A stretch of DNA of 23,134 nucleotides. Source: a virus. Taxonomy: Duplodnaviria; Heunggongvirae; Uroviricota; Caudoviricetes. Both the position numbers and the translations under genes were made by a program. The stretch lies in the IMG/VR virus record IMGVR_UViG_2651869694_000013; one strand, 5' to 3'. The notes under the pieces were generated by a model. The model was given only the letters and a program-made list of their open reading frames with translations. It searched no databases and was not told the DNA's origin. Below are positions 1 through 17,068 of this stretch, one piece after another; within the stretch, counting starts at the first letter, position 1, and every line of letters starts with the position of its first letter.

Positions 1-1074
1 TCATTTGTCGATTTCAATTTTGTCCCATTCCCGTCCACGGCTGTCTCTATACCGCGCCGCCATTGAATCTGATTTATGCCCGAGAAGACGTTGAGCAAAT
101 TTATCGCCAATCTGGTTCCGGTATAGCCTCGCTGACAGGCTACGCAGTTCATGGAATGTTGGCGGGTTTCCATCAAATGAGAGTCCAGATGCATTTCTCG
201 CCTTTGTAAAATACTTTGATACTGTTTTCGGGGAAAGAGGATCGTAATGCTTTGATGCGATTATAGTTTCACTGCTGCTGGCCTCCCTGCATTTCTGTAG
301 TGTATCAGCCAATGAGATATTGAGCGCGTCAATCGTTAGCGTTAGCGGAATGGCGAGTTTAGCCCCTGTTTTACTCTGTTCAATGTGAAGATGGTTGTCG
401 TTTATGTCTGACCATTTCATTCTGCACAAATCGCCGACTCTCTGCCCTGTAACGACGGCCAAATCCATCGCCAGCCTTAGCCAGATAGGGAGAGGTTCGG
501 CTGCATGGTAAATCTCGACATACTCATTAGCTGTCAGCCTTGAGCGCCTTACTTCTGACTTTGCTGTACGGGTTGCTGTTACCGGATTCGTTGCCACATG
601 CCCCTCGGCTATTGCTTCACGAAAAACGTCAACAAGGGTTGACCTGATTAATTTTGCGGAAGCTGCTTTACCTTCTGCTACGTAGGTGTTTAGCATTGCT
701 GCCACTTCTTTCGTTGATATGTCAGTGAGCGGTTTGTCCGGCAATTTTCTTCGGATTGCCCTGATTTTGCTGGCGTAGTCGAGTAGAGTTTTCGGCCTGA
801 TCCCCCTTTCGGTGAGGATTGTTTCATATCGGTCAAGCCACACATGAAGAGTGATTGCGTCACCGCCTTTAATTCTGTCTATTAGTGATTTGCGTCCGCT
901 GTCTGAGAGTAACTCAATATTGGCCTGTATTGCTTCAGTGATTGCTATCCTCCTGTCTCGGCCTAAACCAAACTCTTTACCCGTCCTTGGGTCCCTGTAG
1001 CAGTAATATCCATTGTTTCTTATATAAAGGTTAGGGGGTAAATCCCGGCGCTCATGACTTCGCCTTCTTCCCAT
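1..1074 (-). CDS. int: Tyrosine site-specific integrase, lambda Int type
   Basis: 357-aa ORF; translation matches recalled lambda Int essentially end to end (MGRRRSHERRDLPPNLYIRNNGYYCYRDPRTGKEFGLGRDRR...EWDKIEI). Stop codon sits at window positions 1-3, so attL/attP lies beyond the left edge. Confidence 0.95.
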   Translation of the reverse strand: MGRRRSHERRDLPPNLYIRNNGYYCYRDPRTGKEFGLGRDRRIAITEAIQANIELLSDSGRKSLIDRIKGGDAITLHVWLDRYETILTERGIRPKTLLDYASKIRAIRRKLPDKPLTDISTKEVAAMLNTYVAEGKAASAKLIRSTLVDVFREAIAEGHVATNPVTATRTAKSEVRRSRLTANEYVEIYHAAEPLPIWLRLAMDLAVVTGQRVGDLCRMKWSDINDNHLHIEQSKTGAKLAIPLTLTIDALNISLADTLQKCREASSSETIIASKHYDPLSPKTVSKYFTKARNASGLSFDGNPPTFHELRSLSARLYRNQIGDKFAQRLLGHKSDSMAARYRDSRGREWDKIEIDK

Positions 1075-6414: not shown

Positions 6415-6547
6415 TTTTCGGGACTCCTGGCTGATTAAGTATGTCGATAAGGCGTTTCCATCCGTCACGTAATTTACGGGTGATTCGTTCAAGTAAAGAT
6501 TCGGAAGGGCAGCCAGCAACAGGCCACCCTGCAATGGCATATTGCAT
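6383..6547 (-). CDS. cIII: cIII (FtsH protease inhibitor, stabilises cII)
   Basis: Hand translation [48 protein letters not shown]... matches recalled lambda cIII; GGAG Shine-Dalgarno upstream; overlaps the kil start. Confidence 0.85.
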   Translation of the reverse strand: MQYAIAGWPVAGCPSESLLERITRKLRDGWKRLIDILNQPGVPKNGSNNYGYPD

Positions 6548-6570
6548 GGTGTGCTCCTTATTTATACATA

Positions 6571-8796: not shown

Positions 8797-10152
<1,356 letters not shown>

Positions 10153-13113: not shown

Positions 13114-13524
13114 ATGAAGCAAACAATCTTCCTCCGAACTAAGCAACAACAGCAAGCCGCAATCAACGCCATCCTCGCAACTCCTCTCGATAAAGACAAG
13201 CCAGTCACCATCCGCATTACTGACTACAAGCGCAACCTTGACCAGAACGCAAAATTTCACGCGATGCTGGCGGATATCGCACGTCAGGTTCAATGGTGCG
13301 ATAAGTGGTTAAAACCAGAACAATGGAAGGTTTTGTTGATTAGCGGTCATGCAGTGGCAACAAAGCAGGAAGCTGATGTTTTGCCCGGGCTTGAAGGCGA
13401 ATACGTCAACATTCGCGAAAGCAGCGCGCAGATGAGCGTGAAGCGTATGGCAAGTCTGATCGAGTACACAACAGCCTGGGCTATTGGTCAGGGTGTCAGA
13501 TTTACCGACAGGAGGTACGAATGA
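13114..13524 (+). CDS. ninB: NinB-family recombination protein
   Basis: 136-aa product; resemblance to recalled lambda NinB (for example [22 protein letters not shown] versus RSLDQNRKLWA...); sits immediately upstream of a ninE-like start, as in lambda. Confidence 0.7.
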
Positions 13525-13622
13525 GACGACAGCGACGAAGCATCACCGACATAATCTGCGAAAACTGCAAATACCTTCCAACGAAACGCTCCAGAAATTT
13601 AGTTTTGAGCAGAATACCATGA
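13521..13622 (+). pseudogene. ninE: Truncated ninE-like gene (33 codons; NinE-like for 26 residues, then divergent and stopped)
   Basis: Hand translation [26 protein letters not shown] then LVLSRIP and stop. The start matches the recalled lambda NinE N-terminus; the ATG overlaps the ninB stop (ATGA). Appears to mark an insertion breakpoint. Confidence 0.45.
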
Positions 13623-13636
13623 TGTCAGTGCAAGGG

Positions 13637-13730
13637 GGAGAAAGTCTCCTCATTATCTGATTCGCAATTTACGTGCATATTTAAATATTGCACGTTACAA
13701 CGTGCATGTGTATGATTGACTTATCAATCA
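13637..13730. promoter_or_regulatory. Cluster of palindromic operator-like elements upstream of the 355-aa gene
   Basis: GGAGA-aag-TCTCC (13637-13649); three ACGTGCA/TGCACGT half-sites (13671-13677, 13689-13695, 13700-13706) around a TATTTAAATA core; TGATTGA-ctta-TCAATCA (13713-13730) containing a TTGACT -35-like hexamer. Confidence 0.4.
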
Positions 13731-13741
13731 CAACACGAGAT

Positions 13742-14755
13742 ATGCTCATGAAAAATGATGATGTTAGTGGGAAGGCCAAAGGCGGTAAGGCACGCGCGGC
13801 AAAAATGACAGCAGAGCAAAGAAAAGAATCCTCAAGAAAGGCTGTTGCCGCAAAAAAAGAAAAAGCTTTATTGCCCGTATCTGCGAATGAGGGAAAGTTA
13901 AAGATCGGTGATGCGGAATTAGATGTCGCGGTTCTCGAAAATGGACGGCGTATCATATCACAAGCTTCTGTTTTTAAAGCATTTGGCCGACCACAAAGAG
14001 GGGGTAGAGCACCTCAAGAAGAGGGGGTGATCAATATGCCCGCTTTTATGGATGCTGCAAACCTTAAAAAATATATAAATCAAGATGTTATGGATGTGAT
14101 CAATAAGGTCAAATACAAGACGATTACTGGCTCCGTCCAGGAAGGTTATGACGCATCCATAATACCTCTTGTCTGCGATGTTTATTTAAAGGCAAGAGAG
14201 GCAGGCGCTATCACCAGGCCAAACCAGTTAGAGACAGCCAAGAAAGCTGAAATTCTGGTGCGCTCATTAGCTAAAGTCGGAATAATAGCGCTTGTTGATG
14301 AAGCGACGGGGTACCAGCGAGATAGAGAAAAAGATGCGCTCGCCAAAATACTCGAGGCCTTTGTCGCAAAGGAAATTCAACCTTATATTACAACATTTCC
14401 TGCTGATTATTATGAAGAGCTTTTCAGGTTAAGGGGCTTAGAATACCCGCCGGAAAATCCCCGCTTCCGGCCTCAGTATTTTGGCGTTTTGACAAATGAT
14501 ATCGTCTACAAGAGATTGGCACCAAACATCCTTGAGGAGCTTAAAAAGCAGAACGTAAAGGCCTCAAAAGGTACAAAGTTGTTTCAGGGGCTGACGCCAA
14601 ATATTGGATATCAAAAATTAAGAGAGCATCTGTCATCAACCGTTACGATTATGAAGCTATCTAACGACTATTCAGATTTTATTGCAAAAATGAATCGCCT
14701 GCATCCAAGGTTTGAGGATGTGAAAACAGACGAACTGGATGATTCAGACAAGTAA
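13742..14755 (+). CDS. Uncharacterised phage protein (~337 aa) with a lysine-rich N-terminus; possibly P63C-domain family (unverified)
   Basis: Long ORF; the track starts it at a TTG (13688), but the ATG at 13742 or 13748 is more plausible. No Walker or other catalytic motif seen by eye. Confidence 0.6.
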   Translation: MLMKNDDVSGKAKGGKARAAKMTAEQRKESSRKAVAAKKEKALLPVSANEGKLKIGDAELDVAVLENGRRIISQASVFKAFGRPQRGGRAPQEEGVINMPAFMDAANLKKYINQDVMDVINKVKYKTITGSVQEGYDASIIPLVCDVYLKAREAGAITRPNQLETAKKAEILVRSLAKVGIIALVDEATGYQRDREKDALAKILEAFVAKEIQPYITTFPADYYEELFRLRGLEYPPENPRFRPQYFGVLTNDIVYKRLAPNILEELKKQNVKASKGTKLFQGLTPNIGYQKLREHLSSTVTIMKLSNDYSDFIAKMNRLHPRFEDVKTDELDDSDK

Positions 14756-14761
14756 CAGTAA

Positions 14762-14784
14762 CCCACCTTCAGGTGGTTTTTTTG
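14762..14784 (+). terminator. Rho-independent terminator
   Basis: CCACC-TTCA-GGTGG hairpin followed by seven T. Confidence 0.65.
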
Positions 14785-14849
14785 TACAAATCCTTCAGCG
14801 TAAGTTTACCTCCTTCACTGCATTACTACTGACCATTGACAACTTAACA

Positions 14850-14876
14850 AACCCAGCTTCGGCTGGGTTTTTTATT
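14850..14876 (+). terminator. Rho-independent terminator (second of a tandem pair)
   Basis: CCCAGC-TTCG-GCTGGG hairpin followed by TTTTTTATT. Confidence 0.65.
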
Positions 14877-14900
14877 GCTGAATTTTCAATATGAGAGGAC

Positions 14901-15614
14901 ATGACAATGAATGAGCTGATAAATAGCAACGCCATCAAAATGACCAGCATTGAAATCGCTGAGTTGGTGGGAAGTCGTCATGACAAGGTGAAACAATCTA
15001 TTGAACGACTGGCGGGACGAGGTGTAATAGCTTTTCCCCCAATGGGGGAGAAGCCCACCGCAGGCCGACCGGTAAGCTATTACATCTTCGAAGGAGAACA
15101 AGGTAAGCGCGACAGCATTATTGTCGTTGCCCAGTTGTCGCCGGAATTCACCGCTCGTCTTGTTGACCGTTGGCGAGAGCTTGAAGAAGCTGCGGTTAAT
15201 ATCCCAAAAACGCTACCAGAAGCGTTACGCCTTGCTGCTGATCTTGCTGAGCAGAAAATGCAACTAGAAAACCAGCTCGCAATTGCCGCACCTAAAGTTG
15301 AGTTTGCCGATCGCGTTGGCGAGGCCAGCGGAATTTTGATTGGAAACTATGCAAAGGTTGTTGGTATTGGTCCAAACAAACTGTTTGCGTGGATGCGTGA
15401 TCACAAAATCCTTATTGCTTCAGGTTCCCGGCGAAATGTGCCAATGCAGGAATATATGGAGCGCGGCTATTTCACAGTGAAAGAAACAGCGGTCAACACA
15501 AATCACGGAATACAGATATCGTTCACCACAAAAATCACCGGGCGTGGTCAACAGTGGCTGACCAGAAAGCTGCTCGATAACGGAATGCTGAAAGTAACAG
15601 GGGAGGCTGCTTAA
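14901..15614 (+). CDS. Phage regulatory protein, Rha N-terminal domain plus KilAC/ANT antirepressor C-terminal domain
   Basis: 237-aa product with a GAGAGG Shine-Dalgarno. N-terminal region (SIEIAELVGSRHDKVKQSIERL...) resembles the Rha family; C-terminal region (FADRVGEASGILIGNYAKVVGIGPNKLFAWMRDHKIL...) resembles the antirepressor KilAC domain. Confidence 0.75.
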   Translation: MTMNELINSNAIKMTSIEIAELVGSRHDKVKQSIERLAGRGVIAFPPMGEKPTAGRPVSYYIFEGEQGKRDSIIVVAQLSPEFTARLVDRWRELEEAAVNIPKTLPEALRLAADLAEQKMQLENQLAIAAPKVEFADRVGEASGILIGNYAKVVGIGPNKLFAWMRDHKILIASGSRRNVPMQEYMERGYFTVKETAVNTNHGIQISFTTKITGRGQQWLTRKLLDNGMLKVTGEAA

Positions 15615-15904
15615 TGGCTAACCTACGCAAAGAAGCACGCGGCAGAGAATGCCAGGTTCGTATTTACGGCATATGCAATGGCAATCCTGAAACTACAGTT
15701 CTGGCACATTACCGGATGGCTGGAATTTGCGGAACTGGAATGAAGCCTGAAGACCTGATCGGCGCATGGGCTTGTAGCGCGTGTCACGATGAAATCGACA
15801 GACGCACCCATAATCTCGACAACAAAGACGCCAGACTTTACCACCTCGAAGGCGTAATCAGGACGCAGGCGATACTGCTGAAGGAGGGGAAGATTAAGTC
15901 ATGA
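15614..15904 (+). CDS. DUF1364-family protein (YbcO-like putative zinc-binding nuclease)
   Basis: 96-aa product with conserved Cys/His pattern (RECQVR...CNGN...CSACHDEIDRRTH) resembling DLP12 YbcO; start overlaps the upstream stop (TAATG). Confidence 0.7.
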   Translation: MANLRKEARGRECQVRIYGICNGNPETTVLAHYRMAGICGTGMKPEDLIGAWACSACHDEIDRRTHNLDNKDARLYHLEGVIRTQAILLKEGKIKS

Positions 15905-16263
15905 ACGAATATCAGTTTGTGCTTCCATACCCGCCGTCGGTGAATACCTACTGGCGAAGACGGGGAAGCCAATACTACATCAGCGATAAAGGCCAGAAAT
16001 ACCGAAAAGACGTTCAGCAAATCATCCACCAACTCAAGTTAGATATTTTCACCAAATCACGACTCCGCATCAAAGTCATAGCAGACGTTCCAGACTCCCG
16101 CCGCCGCGACCTCGATAACATCCTGAAAGGTTTACTCGACTCCCTTATCCACGCCGGATTTGCGGAAGACGACGAGCAATTCGATGACATTCGCGTAATT
16201 CGTGGTGTGAAAGTACCAGGCGGACGGCTTGGAATAAAAATCACCGAACTGGAGAACGTATGA
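15901..16263 (+). CDS. rusA: Holliday-junction resolvase RusA
   Basis: 120-aa product with RusA-family signature (LPYPPSVNTYWRRRG...DSRRRDLDNILKGLLDSLIHAGF...GGRLGIKITELE). Confidence 0.85.
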   Translation: MNEYQFVLPYPPSVNTYWRRRGSQYYISDKGQKYRKDVQQIIHQLKLDIFTKSRLRIKVIADVPDSRRRDLDNILKGLLDSLIHAGFAEDDEQFDDIRVIRGVKVPGGRLGIKITELENV

Positions 16264-16448
16264 ACGCCACAATTCAAACGATACCAGAGCTTCTTATCCA
16301 GACACGAGGTAATCAGACCGAAGTGGCAAGGATACTTTCCTGCGCAAGAGGAACAGTGCTCAAGTACAACCGAGACAGCAAAGGTGAGCGTCACGTAATA
16401 GTTAACGGCGTCCTGATGGTAACGCCAGGCAAAAAGGGAAGACGATGA
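16260..16448 (+). CDS. ninH: NinH-like small DNA-binding protein
   Basis: 62-aa product (IPELLIQTRGNQTEVARILSCARGTVLKY...) resembling recalled lambda NinH (GNQTEVARRLKCSRGTVRKY). Confidence 0.6.
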   Translation: MNATIQTIPELLIQTRGNQTEVARILSCARGTVLKYNRDSKGERHVIVNGVLMVTPGKKGRR

Positions 16449-17068
16449 GACTCGAAAGCGTAGCTAAATTTCATTCGCCAAAAAGCCCGATGATGAGCGA
16501 CTCACCACGGGCTACGGCTTCTGACTCTCTTTCCGGTACTGATGTGATGGCTGCTATGGGGATGGCGCAATCACAAGCCGGATTCGGAATGGCTGCATTC
16601 TGCGGTAAGCATGAACTCAGCCAGAACGACAAACAAAAGGCTATCAACTATCTGATGCAATTTGCACACAAGGTATCGGGGAAATACCGTGGTGTGGCAA
16701 AGCTCGAAGGAAATACTAAGGCAAAGGTACTGCAAGTGCTCGCAACATTCGCTTATGCGGATTATTGCCGTAGTGCTGCTACGCCGGGCGCAAGATGCAG
16801 AGATTGCCACGGTACAGGCCGTGCGGTTGATATAGCCAAAACAGAGCAGTGGGGGATAGTTGCTGAGAAAGAGTGCGGAAGATGTAAAGGCGTCGGTTAT
16901 TCAAGAATGCCAGCAAGCGCCGCATATCGCGCTGTGACGATGCTAATCCCAAACCTTACCCAACCCACCTGGTCACGCACTGTTAAGCCGCTGTATGACG
17001 CTCTGGTTGTGCAATGCCACAAGGAAGAGTCAATCGCAGACAACATTTTGAATGCGATCACACGTTAG
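16445..17068 (+). CDS. Q: Late-gene antiterminator Q (lambda type)
   Basis: 207-aa product matching recalled lambda Q (MRLESVAKFHSPKSPMMSDSPRATASDSLSGTDVMAAMGMAQSQAGFGMAAFCGKHELSQNDKQKAINYLMQFAHKVSGKYRGVAKLEGNTK...). Confidence 0.95.
   Translation: MRLESVAKFHSPKSPMMSDSPRATASDSLSGTDVMAAMGMAQSQAGFGMAAFCGKHELSQNDKQKAINYLMQFAHKVSGKYRGVAKLEGNTKAKVLQVLATFAYADYCRSAATPGARCRDCHGTGRAVDIAKTEQWGIVAEKECGRCKGVGYSRMPASAAYRAVTMLIPNLTQPTWSRTVKPLYDALVVQCHKEESIADNILNAITR

Follow-up and report, generated by a model that had tools for sequence, protein, structure and literature searches.

A P63C-family gene and its recurring upstream half-sites, flanked by P22-type immI remnants, between ninE and roi of a lambda-like prophage

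Morons in the sense of Hendrix and Juhala are autonomous promoter-gene-terminator units of lambdoid phages. In phages HK620 and HK629 the gene order is ninB-ninE-(orf)-ninF-roi-ybcO-rusA-ninH-Q. Proteins with Bro-N or KilA-N domains were reportedly described by Iyer, Koonin and Aravind in 2002 as "regulators of DNA viruses", and the P63C domain is said to take its name from p63 of phage Mx8. Among mobile elements, autorepression at an element's own promoter is known for InsA of IS1, which acts at the IS1 ends, and for I-TevI, which acts at its own promoter. Here we analyse a 23,134-nt stretch of viral DNA (IMG/VR record IMGVR_UViG_2651869694_000013; hereafter the window), which by its gene content is a lambda-like E. 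coli prophage, and within it a segment between ninE and roi that carries a gene of the P63C family. Our main new result is a half-site signature of this family, unrecognised before. For the locus itself we favour, with a probability of roughly 0.6, the reading that positions 13600-14885 are a fragment of P22-type immI that was moved into a lambdoid prophage between its ninE and roi genes, carrying one autonomous, insulated and autorepressed P63C cassette.

Comparison with HK620 demonstrates the boundaries of this cassette. The ninE-like frame of the window (13521-13622, + strand, 33 amino acids [aa]) was aligned with its counterparts in HK620 and 933W; only its codons 1-26 are NinE (Pfam NinE, 1-26 of 58, E = 1.5e-16), after which the frame diverges, and DNA identity to HK620 ninE stops at ~13599. 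Identity resumes at ~14886, in the final bases of ninF, which include the roi ribosome-binding site GAGAGGA (14893-14899); aligned with ninF and roi of HK620, this retained right junction spans 14886-14906 on the + strand. The foreign segment with the P63C cassette is therefore 13600-14885 (+ strand, ~1.29 kb), which took the place of the 3′ half of ninE and almost the whole of ninF, and roi is part of the backbone. An earlier reading of this DNA made from its letters alone (the sequence-only reading) had proposed both a ninE truncated after 26 matching residues and an insertion junction inside it, and both proposals were borne out.

The block is not new sequence and is already deposited for Shiga-toxin (Stx) phages. 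From the start of ninE through roi it shares 96.7% identity with 933W, BP-4795, Nil3, Stx2 converting phage I and others, and 98.3% with Lahn1; 16 phage records share the control region (13600-13750) at 100% identity, and the block is found at a coverage of at least 80% in 49 of 5,426 complete E. coli genomes. In 933W it is annotated as L0095/ST933Wp35, a "P63C domain-containing protein", plus roi. The truncated ninE, control region, open reading frame (ORF), terminators and start of roi are common to 933W and the window, whereas the surroundings differ: a dam methyltransferase gene precedes the block in 933W and ninG comes after it, while in the window ninB lies before and ybcO-rusA after. 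Because the identical truncation of ninE stands behind different upstream genes in the two phages, the junction is old and was inherited with the cassette. In 933W-type phages the block belongs to the delayed-early operon, with the replication genes on one side and Q on the other, and since 1999 annotations have called its main gene hypothetical.

The P63C gene is missing at this position in collinear relatives: the slot reads ninE-(orf)-ninF-roi in HK620 and HK629, ninE-ant-roi in Stx phage 1717, and truncated ninE-P63C-roi in the window and 933W. By these comparisons the site between ninE and roi is a recombination hot spot, filled by ninF, ant or a P63C gene depending on the phage. Downstream of the gene lie terminators at 14763-14783 and 14849-14876. 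The cassette is a mosaic insert of an ordinary kind, probably a moron: like lambdoid morons it is an extra gene amid conserved ones, absent from collinear relatives and equipped with its own control region and terminator. It differs from them in that its promoter is a candidate one, in that it has an apparent autoregulatory operator kept across phyla, and in that its terminators are the scars of another module. The slot of HK629 (locus L003, 1587-1994) holds a 135-aa ORF together with ninF; that of phage 1717 (L015, 2263-3027), like that of many Stx1a and Stx2a phages, holds a P22-type ant.

Alignments of the two ends of the insert demonstrate the ancestry of its flanks. On the left, 13600-13644 shares 91% identity with the immI region of Salmonella phage VSe13. 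On the right, 14759-14802 (- strand) is a P22-type remnant of the mnt 3′ end, 95.5% identical to that of P22, and 14806-14885 (+ strand) is a P22-type remnant of the ant 3′ end with its terminator; in Stx phages 1717, Nil2, P27 and CP-1639, roi is preceded by an ant 3′ end and terminator to which the stretch 14806-14890 is 94% identical. Judged by these matches, both flanks are P22-type immI DNA. The final mnt codons (KKTT-stop) make up a weak hairpin on the + strand, the first terminator or tMNT (14763-14776, with a T7 run to 14783), and folding gave it -7.3 kcal/mol. The second, tANT (+ strand, hairpin 14849-14870 with a UUCG loop and a T6 run to 14876), proved strong, at -15.1 kcal/mol and z = -3.85. 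HK620 carries the same tandem (73.7% identity), annotated there as tMNT and tANT "associated with remnants" of mnt and ant.

The two back-to-back terminators noted by the sequence-only reading are thus both present as hairpins, but by comparison with P22 and HK620 the pair is a deletion scar of P22-type immI and not a designed feature. More generally, a "truncated gene" or a set of "tandem terminators" in a nin region can be a scar left by mosaic recombination and not designed regulation. The likeness to immI (mnt-arc-ant) lies in the 3′ flank of the cassette, whose homology is to the 3′ ends of mnt and of ant, the latter with its terminator, and in the tandem scar shared with HK620; the window differs in that no mnt, arc, ant, sar or operators of these genes are left in it, and in that its copy lies in the nin region, not between gene 16 and gene 9. 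At the cassette we found no P22-type antirepressor module (ant with the arc/mnt control genes and operators), only the 44-nt mnt remnant and the ant 3′ remnant. A small RNA (sRNA) between the two terminators was considered and rejected, as this stretch consists of mnt and ant remnants and gave no promoter hit, and Rfam searches of the window and of 13450-15000 returned no RNA family in the cassette region.

Profile searches demonstrate that the gene between these flanks belongs to the P63C family. The domain search that the sequence-only reading had proposed matched its product to PF10546 (P63C) at E = 1e-23 and 84.2 bits, against a cut-off of 26.1; phrog_2384 was matched at E = 2.2e-146 across positions 2-337 of 338, and all 36 of 36 aligned homologues also matched PF10546. 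Homologues number more than 7,600 in 90% clusters and fall into 4,869 clusters at 50% identity, from many phyla; most are 320-360 aa long and align from end to end. That reading had described a 355-aa ORF with a lysine-rich N-terminus. The ORF and its basic N-terminus are real, but 355 aa is the length of the longest TTG-initiated frame ending at 14755, and since the N-termini of homologues and a conserved upstream box both point to ATG 13748, the protein most likely has 335 aa (13748-14755, + strand). For 933W, the RefSeq start of the P63C ORF (L001, 2686-3735, equivalent to window 13706-14755) is an ATG inside the third of the half-sites described below and gives 349 aa. This start is probably too far upstream; there too, the alignment of homologues and the conserved box favour an ATG 42 nt further on, which gives 335 aa.

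The lysine/arginine-rich N-terminus is kept family-wide, with G13, R16 and R25 near-invariant in the basic tail, and the C-terminal half is extremely conserved, with D184, E185, T187, G188, Q190 and R193 invariant along with many other residues. In structure models the protein begins with the basic tail, continues with an alpha/beta N-domain and ends in a helical half that contains the P63C domain. Structural matches to Bro, KilA and Mx8 p63 are weak. The protein resembles Bro-N/KilA-N regulators in its two-part build, an N-terminal putative DNA-binding module followed by a conserved C-terminal domain; it differs from them in that a Pfam search of its N-domain found no sequence-level match to Bro-N, KilA-N or Rha. 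The P63C family has neither a solved fold nor a function on record. Searches of NCBIfam and of PDB sequences gave nothing meaningful, PADLOC-DB 2.0 gave only chance-level matches (E = 0.005-0.015), and a literature search covering P63C, L0095, the Roi/933W terminators and EcOnc sRNAs found no functional study.

Upstream of the gene, three half-sites form an operator-like set of 36 bp in all: ACGTGCA at 13671-13677, TGCACGT at 13689-13695 and ACGTGCA at 13700-13706. A candidate sigma-70 promoter (13687-13715, + strand) can be read across them, with TTGCAC at 13687-13692, 17 nt, and TATGAT at 13710-13715 (8 of 12 matches); its -35 lies within half-site 2, and half-site 3 lies within its spacer. 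Consensus promoter scans detected no cassette promoter, this candidate falling below their threshold; at the place equivalent to 13710-13715, the homologous loci L013 and L014 have a perfect TATAAT. The number of ACGTGCA sites by itself means nothing, since three were found in the 23-kb window against 2.8 expected by chance. The cluster is nevertheless not a chance one, because all three lie within 36 bp and the arrangement recurs in homologous loci. Outside the cassette, ACGTGCA is absent from the window, including the cI gene (9198-9830) and its flanks, where immunity operators should lie.

All the palindromes listed by the sequence-only reading are present: the three ACGTGCA sites, GGAGA/TCTCC and TGATTGA/TCAATCA. 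Its view that they look like operators is upheld for the ACGTGCA set, which is kept with the gene across contexts and phyla, but not for TGATTGA-N4-TCAATCA (13713-13730, arms at 13713-13719 and 13724-13730), which is absent from the aligned homologous upstream regions and may be due to chance or lineage-specific. We rejected this last palindrome as a site of FNR/CRP type, because on inspection its half-site spacing is wrong and it is not conserved. The GGGGAGA/TCTCCTC hairpin (13635-13651, + strand; RNA fold -12.8 kcal/mol, z = -2.15) has no U-run and lies where L009, L014, L058 and L123-127 have an intrinsic terminator; it may be a decayed insulator. Next to the gene is the conserved box AATCACAACACGAG (13726-13739, + strand), 8-12 nt before the start codon and near-invariant in 7 enterobacterial loci; it holds the only Shine-Dalgarno-like GAG of the gene, a weak one, and can pair with the start-codon region.

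Enterobacterial homologues carry the same arrangement in unrelated surroundings. The P63C gene comes right after an S24 repressor gene, in the interval from cI to N, in L009/L010 (87% identity to the window protein) and L014 (70%); it follows Arc/Mnt/P22-Ant in a Morganella locus (L011, 83%) and stands antisense between baseplate genes in L013 (72%). In the aligned loci the 110 nt upstream of the gene begin, often after an intrinsic terminator, with ACGTGCA-N11-TGCACG-N4-5-ACGTGCAT, where N11 is AT-rich and variable, and continue after ACGTGCAT with a -10-like box, TTCACAACACGAG, 8-12 nt and the ATG. Across 7 such loci with unrelated neighbours, the invariant alignment columns coincide with the half-sites, while the N11 spacer has diverged.

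These repeats might instead act in RNA, as a 5′-leader structure, an attenuator or a processing site. The half-sites are able to pair as hairpins, the stretch 13708-13765 folds better than shuffled sequences (z = -2.83) and can sequester the start codon, and scans of L013 and L014 gave hairpin-plus-T matches over the half-sites. The half-site region itself, however, folds no better than shuffles (z = -0.72), and since the half-sites precede the -10-like boxes or overlap them, most would not be transcribed. Moreover, their spacing, number and orientation differ by lineage, as those of protein-binding sites do, and copies borne by insertion sequences (ISs) have them between divergent genes. We regard action in RNA as highly improbable.

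The association of motif and gene extends far beyond enterobacteria. We scanned for TGCA[N]G[CT] in the 133 nt upstream of P63C genes at 83 loci, drawn from a one-genome-per-species collection and encoding proteins 42-70% identical, which included Proteobacteria, Actinobacteria, Chloroflexi, Planctomycetes, Acidobacteria, Bacteroidetes, Chlamydiae and Nitrospira. The density was 1.58 per 100 nt upstream of P63C against 0.097 in the remainder of the loci; at least two half-sites were present in 55 of the 83 and at least three in 38, mostly of the forms ATGCAAGCAT/ATGCTTGCAT and in some cases TGCACGCA, and they were limited to positions -100 to -1 of the P63C genes. Upstream of 427 other ORFs in the same loci the density was 0.12 per 100 nt, with at least two sites in only 8. 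An independent set of 52 distinct upstream regions from viral contigs gave 1.26 against 0.097 per 100 nt, and most of the viral regions that scored zero hold variant palindromes such as AGCAAGCAT...ATGCTTGCT and TTAGCATTATGCTAA. Expressed for TGCA[A/C]G[C/T], the enrichment upstream of P63C is 13-16 times the background. The half-site set thus demonstrably accompanies P63C genes in every context, whether immunity region, tail genes, immI, island or IS. A test for co-variation between operator subtype and protein regions was set aside: the difference was equal in all regions, which reflects relatedness and provides no specific evidence.

Some of these contexts recall the window. In P. aeruginosa prophages the P63C gene lies amid tail genes, often beside Arc and Ant, and this recurring immI-type neighbourhood, seen also in the Morganella prophage, matches the mnt and ant scars beside the window gene. 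In L099, L101, L102 (4199-7038) and L011 (1831-5026), the P63C gene adjoins an Arc/Mnt-type repressor pair and a P22_AR_N antirepressor. Pseudomonas also has the gene on a small island (L004-L008, 4084-8189), where it is accompanied by a 181-aa ORF and by a divergent gene for a 418-aa protein with weak pol-beta/nucleotidyltransferase matches; the block stands at varying sites, next to pheT/ihfA, pyocin S genes or an integrase, and may be a small mobile or defence island.

Because the P63C gene is the only constant partner of the half-sites, its product is their likeliest binder. The alternative that a host regulator or another prophage protein binds them, which would make the cassette a moron within a host regulon, draws on the fact that morons are often host-controlled and that the fold evidence for DNA binding by P63C is weak. 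Yet motif and gene occur together in Proteobacteria, Actinobacteria, Chloroflexi, Planctomycetes, Acidobacteria, Nitrospira and others, which have no dedicated regulator in common, and the motif is nearly missing upstream of neighbouring genes and elsewhere in the window. A host or foreign binder therefore seems unlikely to us.

In the autorepressed-cassette reading that we favour, the half-sites would be an operator overlapping the weak sigma-70 promoter TTGCAC-17-TATGAT, bound by the P63C protein through its basic tail and/or its Bro-N/KilA-N-like N-domain; given this overlap, the expected effect is autorepression. Expression of P63C would then be low, self-limited and independent of PR, and would probably occur in the lysogen too. 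The terminators, mainly tANT, would keep cassette transcripts out of roi...Q and would add to the N-dependence of PR transcription, tANT in particular being an extra stop for N-modified polymerase to get past. IS1 InsA and I-TevI offer a parallel, in that a protein of a selfish element apparently limits its own expression via promoter-overlapping sites, but only as an analogy: there is no homology, and binding by P63C is putative. Our preferred guess for the C-terminal half, held with low confidence, is that it acts on mobile-element DNA transactions, that is, on the control of transposition or recombination or the exclusion of competitors. The gene is now testable through a 36-bp operator and a 1.3-kb cassette, with the clear predictions of autorepression and of terminators that insulate Q.

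Clustering of all adjoining ORFs at 87 P63C loci revealed a single real recurrent neighbour, an IS1-family DDE transposase of 280-320 aa (DDE_Tnp_IS1 above cut-off), which stands directly upstream of and divergent from P63C in ~21 of the 87 loci, in several phyla. The half-sites fill the ~100-nt gap common to the two genes, and the pair is bounded by IS1-like inverted repeats, GGTAGTG(G/C)nTCAnTTTGAA. The resulting ISs, with a single-ORF DDE_Tnp_IS1 transposase, are 2.1-2.4 kb long: L043 (1978-4338; 2,361 bp) has a 9-bp target duplication, L046 (1942-4066) and L088 (2017-4232; 2,216 bp) have 8-bp duplications, and in L042 (1981-4313) a duplication was not seen. In L084 a sigma-70 promoter of the transposase with 12 of 12 matches abuts the first half-site. 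These two-gene elements resemble the window in the same sort of repeated half-sites before the P63C gene and in a second gene that is a full-length homologue, the window protein being 47% identical over 322 residues to that of L043. The window, in turn, contains no transposase and no GGTAGTG inverted repeats, and an 8-9-bp duplication is absent around the cassette. Our literature search found no description of an IS1-family group that carries P63C; ISPa14, considered as a possible IS1 element with an extra ORF, proved on checking to be a plain 788-bp IS1. About 100-60 nt before the P63C start in L049, L055, L063 and L085, the transposase -10 box seems to lie only ~6 nt from the ATG of that gene, whose mRNA would be leaderless or nearly so, and the conserved ATGCTTAGCGTCAAGCAT overlaps the transposase -35.

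Given this association, the half-sites of the phage copy could be inert relics of an IS1-type element, transposase sites or a promoter without function, and it is true that about a quarter of the family loci have a divergent IS1-family transposase with half-sites in the common intergenic region. We nevertheless consider this very improbable. Solo copies without a transposase, encoding proteins 70-87% identical to that of the window, keep the half-sites invariant while the intervening sequence has diverged, which indicates selection on the sites, and there are no IS ends near the cassette in the window. A broader and more tentative idea, which we think possible but doubtful, is that P63C proteins form a class of DNA-binding effectors, sequence-specific and spread across phyla, that is native to an undescribed two-gene group of the IS1 family, whose genes share an operator-filled control region, and that phages including 933W and this prophage captured the gene with its operator. 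The C-terminal domain would then control transposition, recombination or replication, or exclude competing elements, and would be expressed from the prophage beside the genes that set the timing of Q and, in Stx phages, of toxin expression. The P63C-bearing IS1-family elements in any case suggest a role in mobile-element biology for which the literature searched gave no description, and together with the half-sites they give a large uncharacterised protein family a regulatory signature and an IS association.

The gene downstream of the insert is roi (14901-15614, + strand), whose product has a candidate Rha-like N-terminus and a KilAC/ANT domain. KilAC/ANT (PF03374) is matched strongly, at E = 2.6e-32 and 111.8 bits, and Phage_pRha (PF09669) at 28.4 bits, just under the cut-off of 29.9. 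There are two in-frame ATGs, at 14901 and 14907, of which the second fits GAGAGGA better; this ribosome-binding site and the HK620 annotation favour a start at 14907. The product is 88% identical to Roi of HK620 and 83% to Roi of 933W. As roi stands beside ninF in phages that lack the insert (HK620 and HK629), it belongs, on this comparison, to the usual ninE-ninF-roi backbone and lies outside the insert. The sequence-only reading had combined the palindromes, the long ORF, the terminators and a Rha/KilAC gene with a strong Shine-Dalgarno sequence in one self-contained, separately regulated module. A module with the control region, long ORF and terminators remains, and so do the KilAC domain, the sub-threshold Rha match and GAGAGGA, but roi falls outside it.

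That reading leads to a model in which a phage repressor or Roi uses the palindromes as its operators and the P63C and Rha/KilAC genes form an alternative induction or anti-repression switch. Several observations lend this idea some appeal: the KilAC/ANT domain of the downstream gene is labelled "anti-repressor" by annotators, sister Stx phages hold a P22-type ant in the same slot, the flanks of the cassette come from the immI (antirepressor) region, and in a review of Stx phages an Ant adjoining Roi is called an enhancer of lytic induction (PMC3430580). Against it, roi is present without the cassette, and in many places the cassette has the same half-sites but no roi, and lies beside different repressors; ACGTGCA is missing near cI, as from the rest of the window; profile comparison found no relation between P63C and the Roi/KilAC protein; and mnt, arc and ant are deleted in the window. 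Roi of HK022 was reportedly described by Clerget and Boccard in 1996 as a DNA-binding protein whose binding site lies within its own gene and which influences lytic growth on hosts deficient in IHF, and it is not known as an antagonist of CI. Nothing links the unit to inactivation of a repressor, which we do not think is a function of the P63C protein; we judge such a switch very unlikely here, and anti-repression is a better fit for the sister form of this slot in other Stx phages, which holds a P22-type ant.

The setting of the autorepressed cassette that we favour is otherwise that of a lambda-like prophage. An integrase gene lies at 1-1074 (- strand), the lambda cIII thermoregulator RNA element at 6502-6560 (- strand; Rfam RF01804, 88.5 bits), the only Rfam family to reach its gathering score in the window, and the gene for an S24-type CI repressor at 9198-9830 (- strand). 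O and P lie between cI and ninB (13114-13524), and beyond roi come YbcO (15614-15904), RusA (15901-16263), NinH (16260-16448) and Q (16445-17068); this gene order places the cassette in the delayed-early (nin) part of the rightward operon. Downstream of Q, at the position of stx in Stx phages, is a 252-aa ORF (17306-18064) that is hydrophobic by eye and has no match in Pfam, followed by a NanS-p-like esterase gene (DUF1737, SASA and DUF6645; 18608-20458). It looks as if the prophage is related to Stx phages but is stx-negative.

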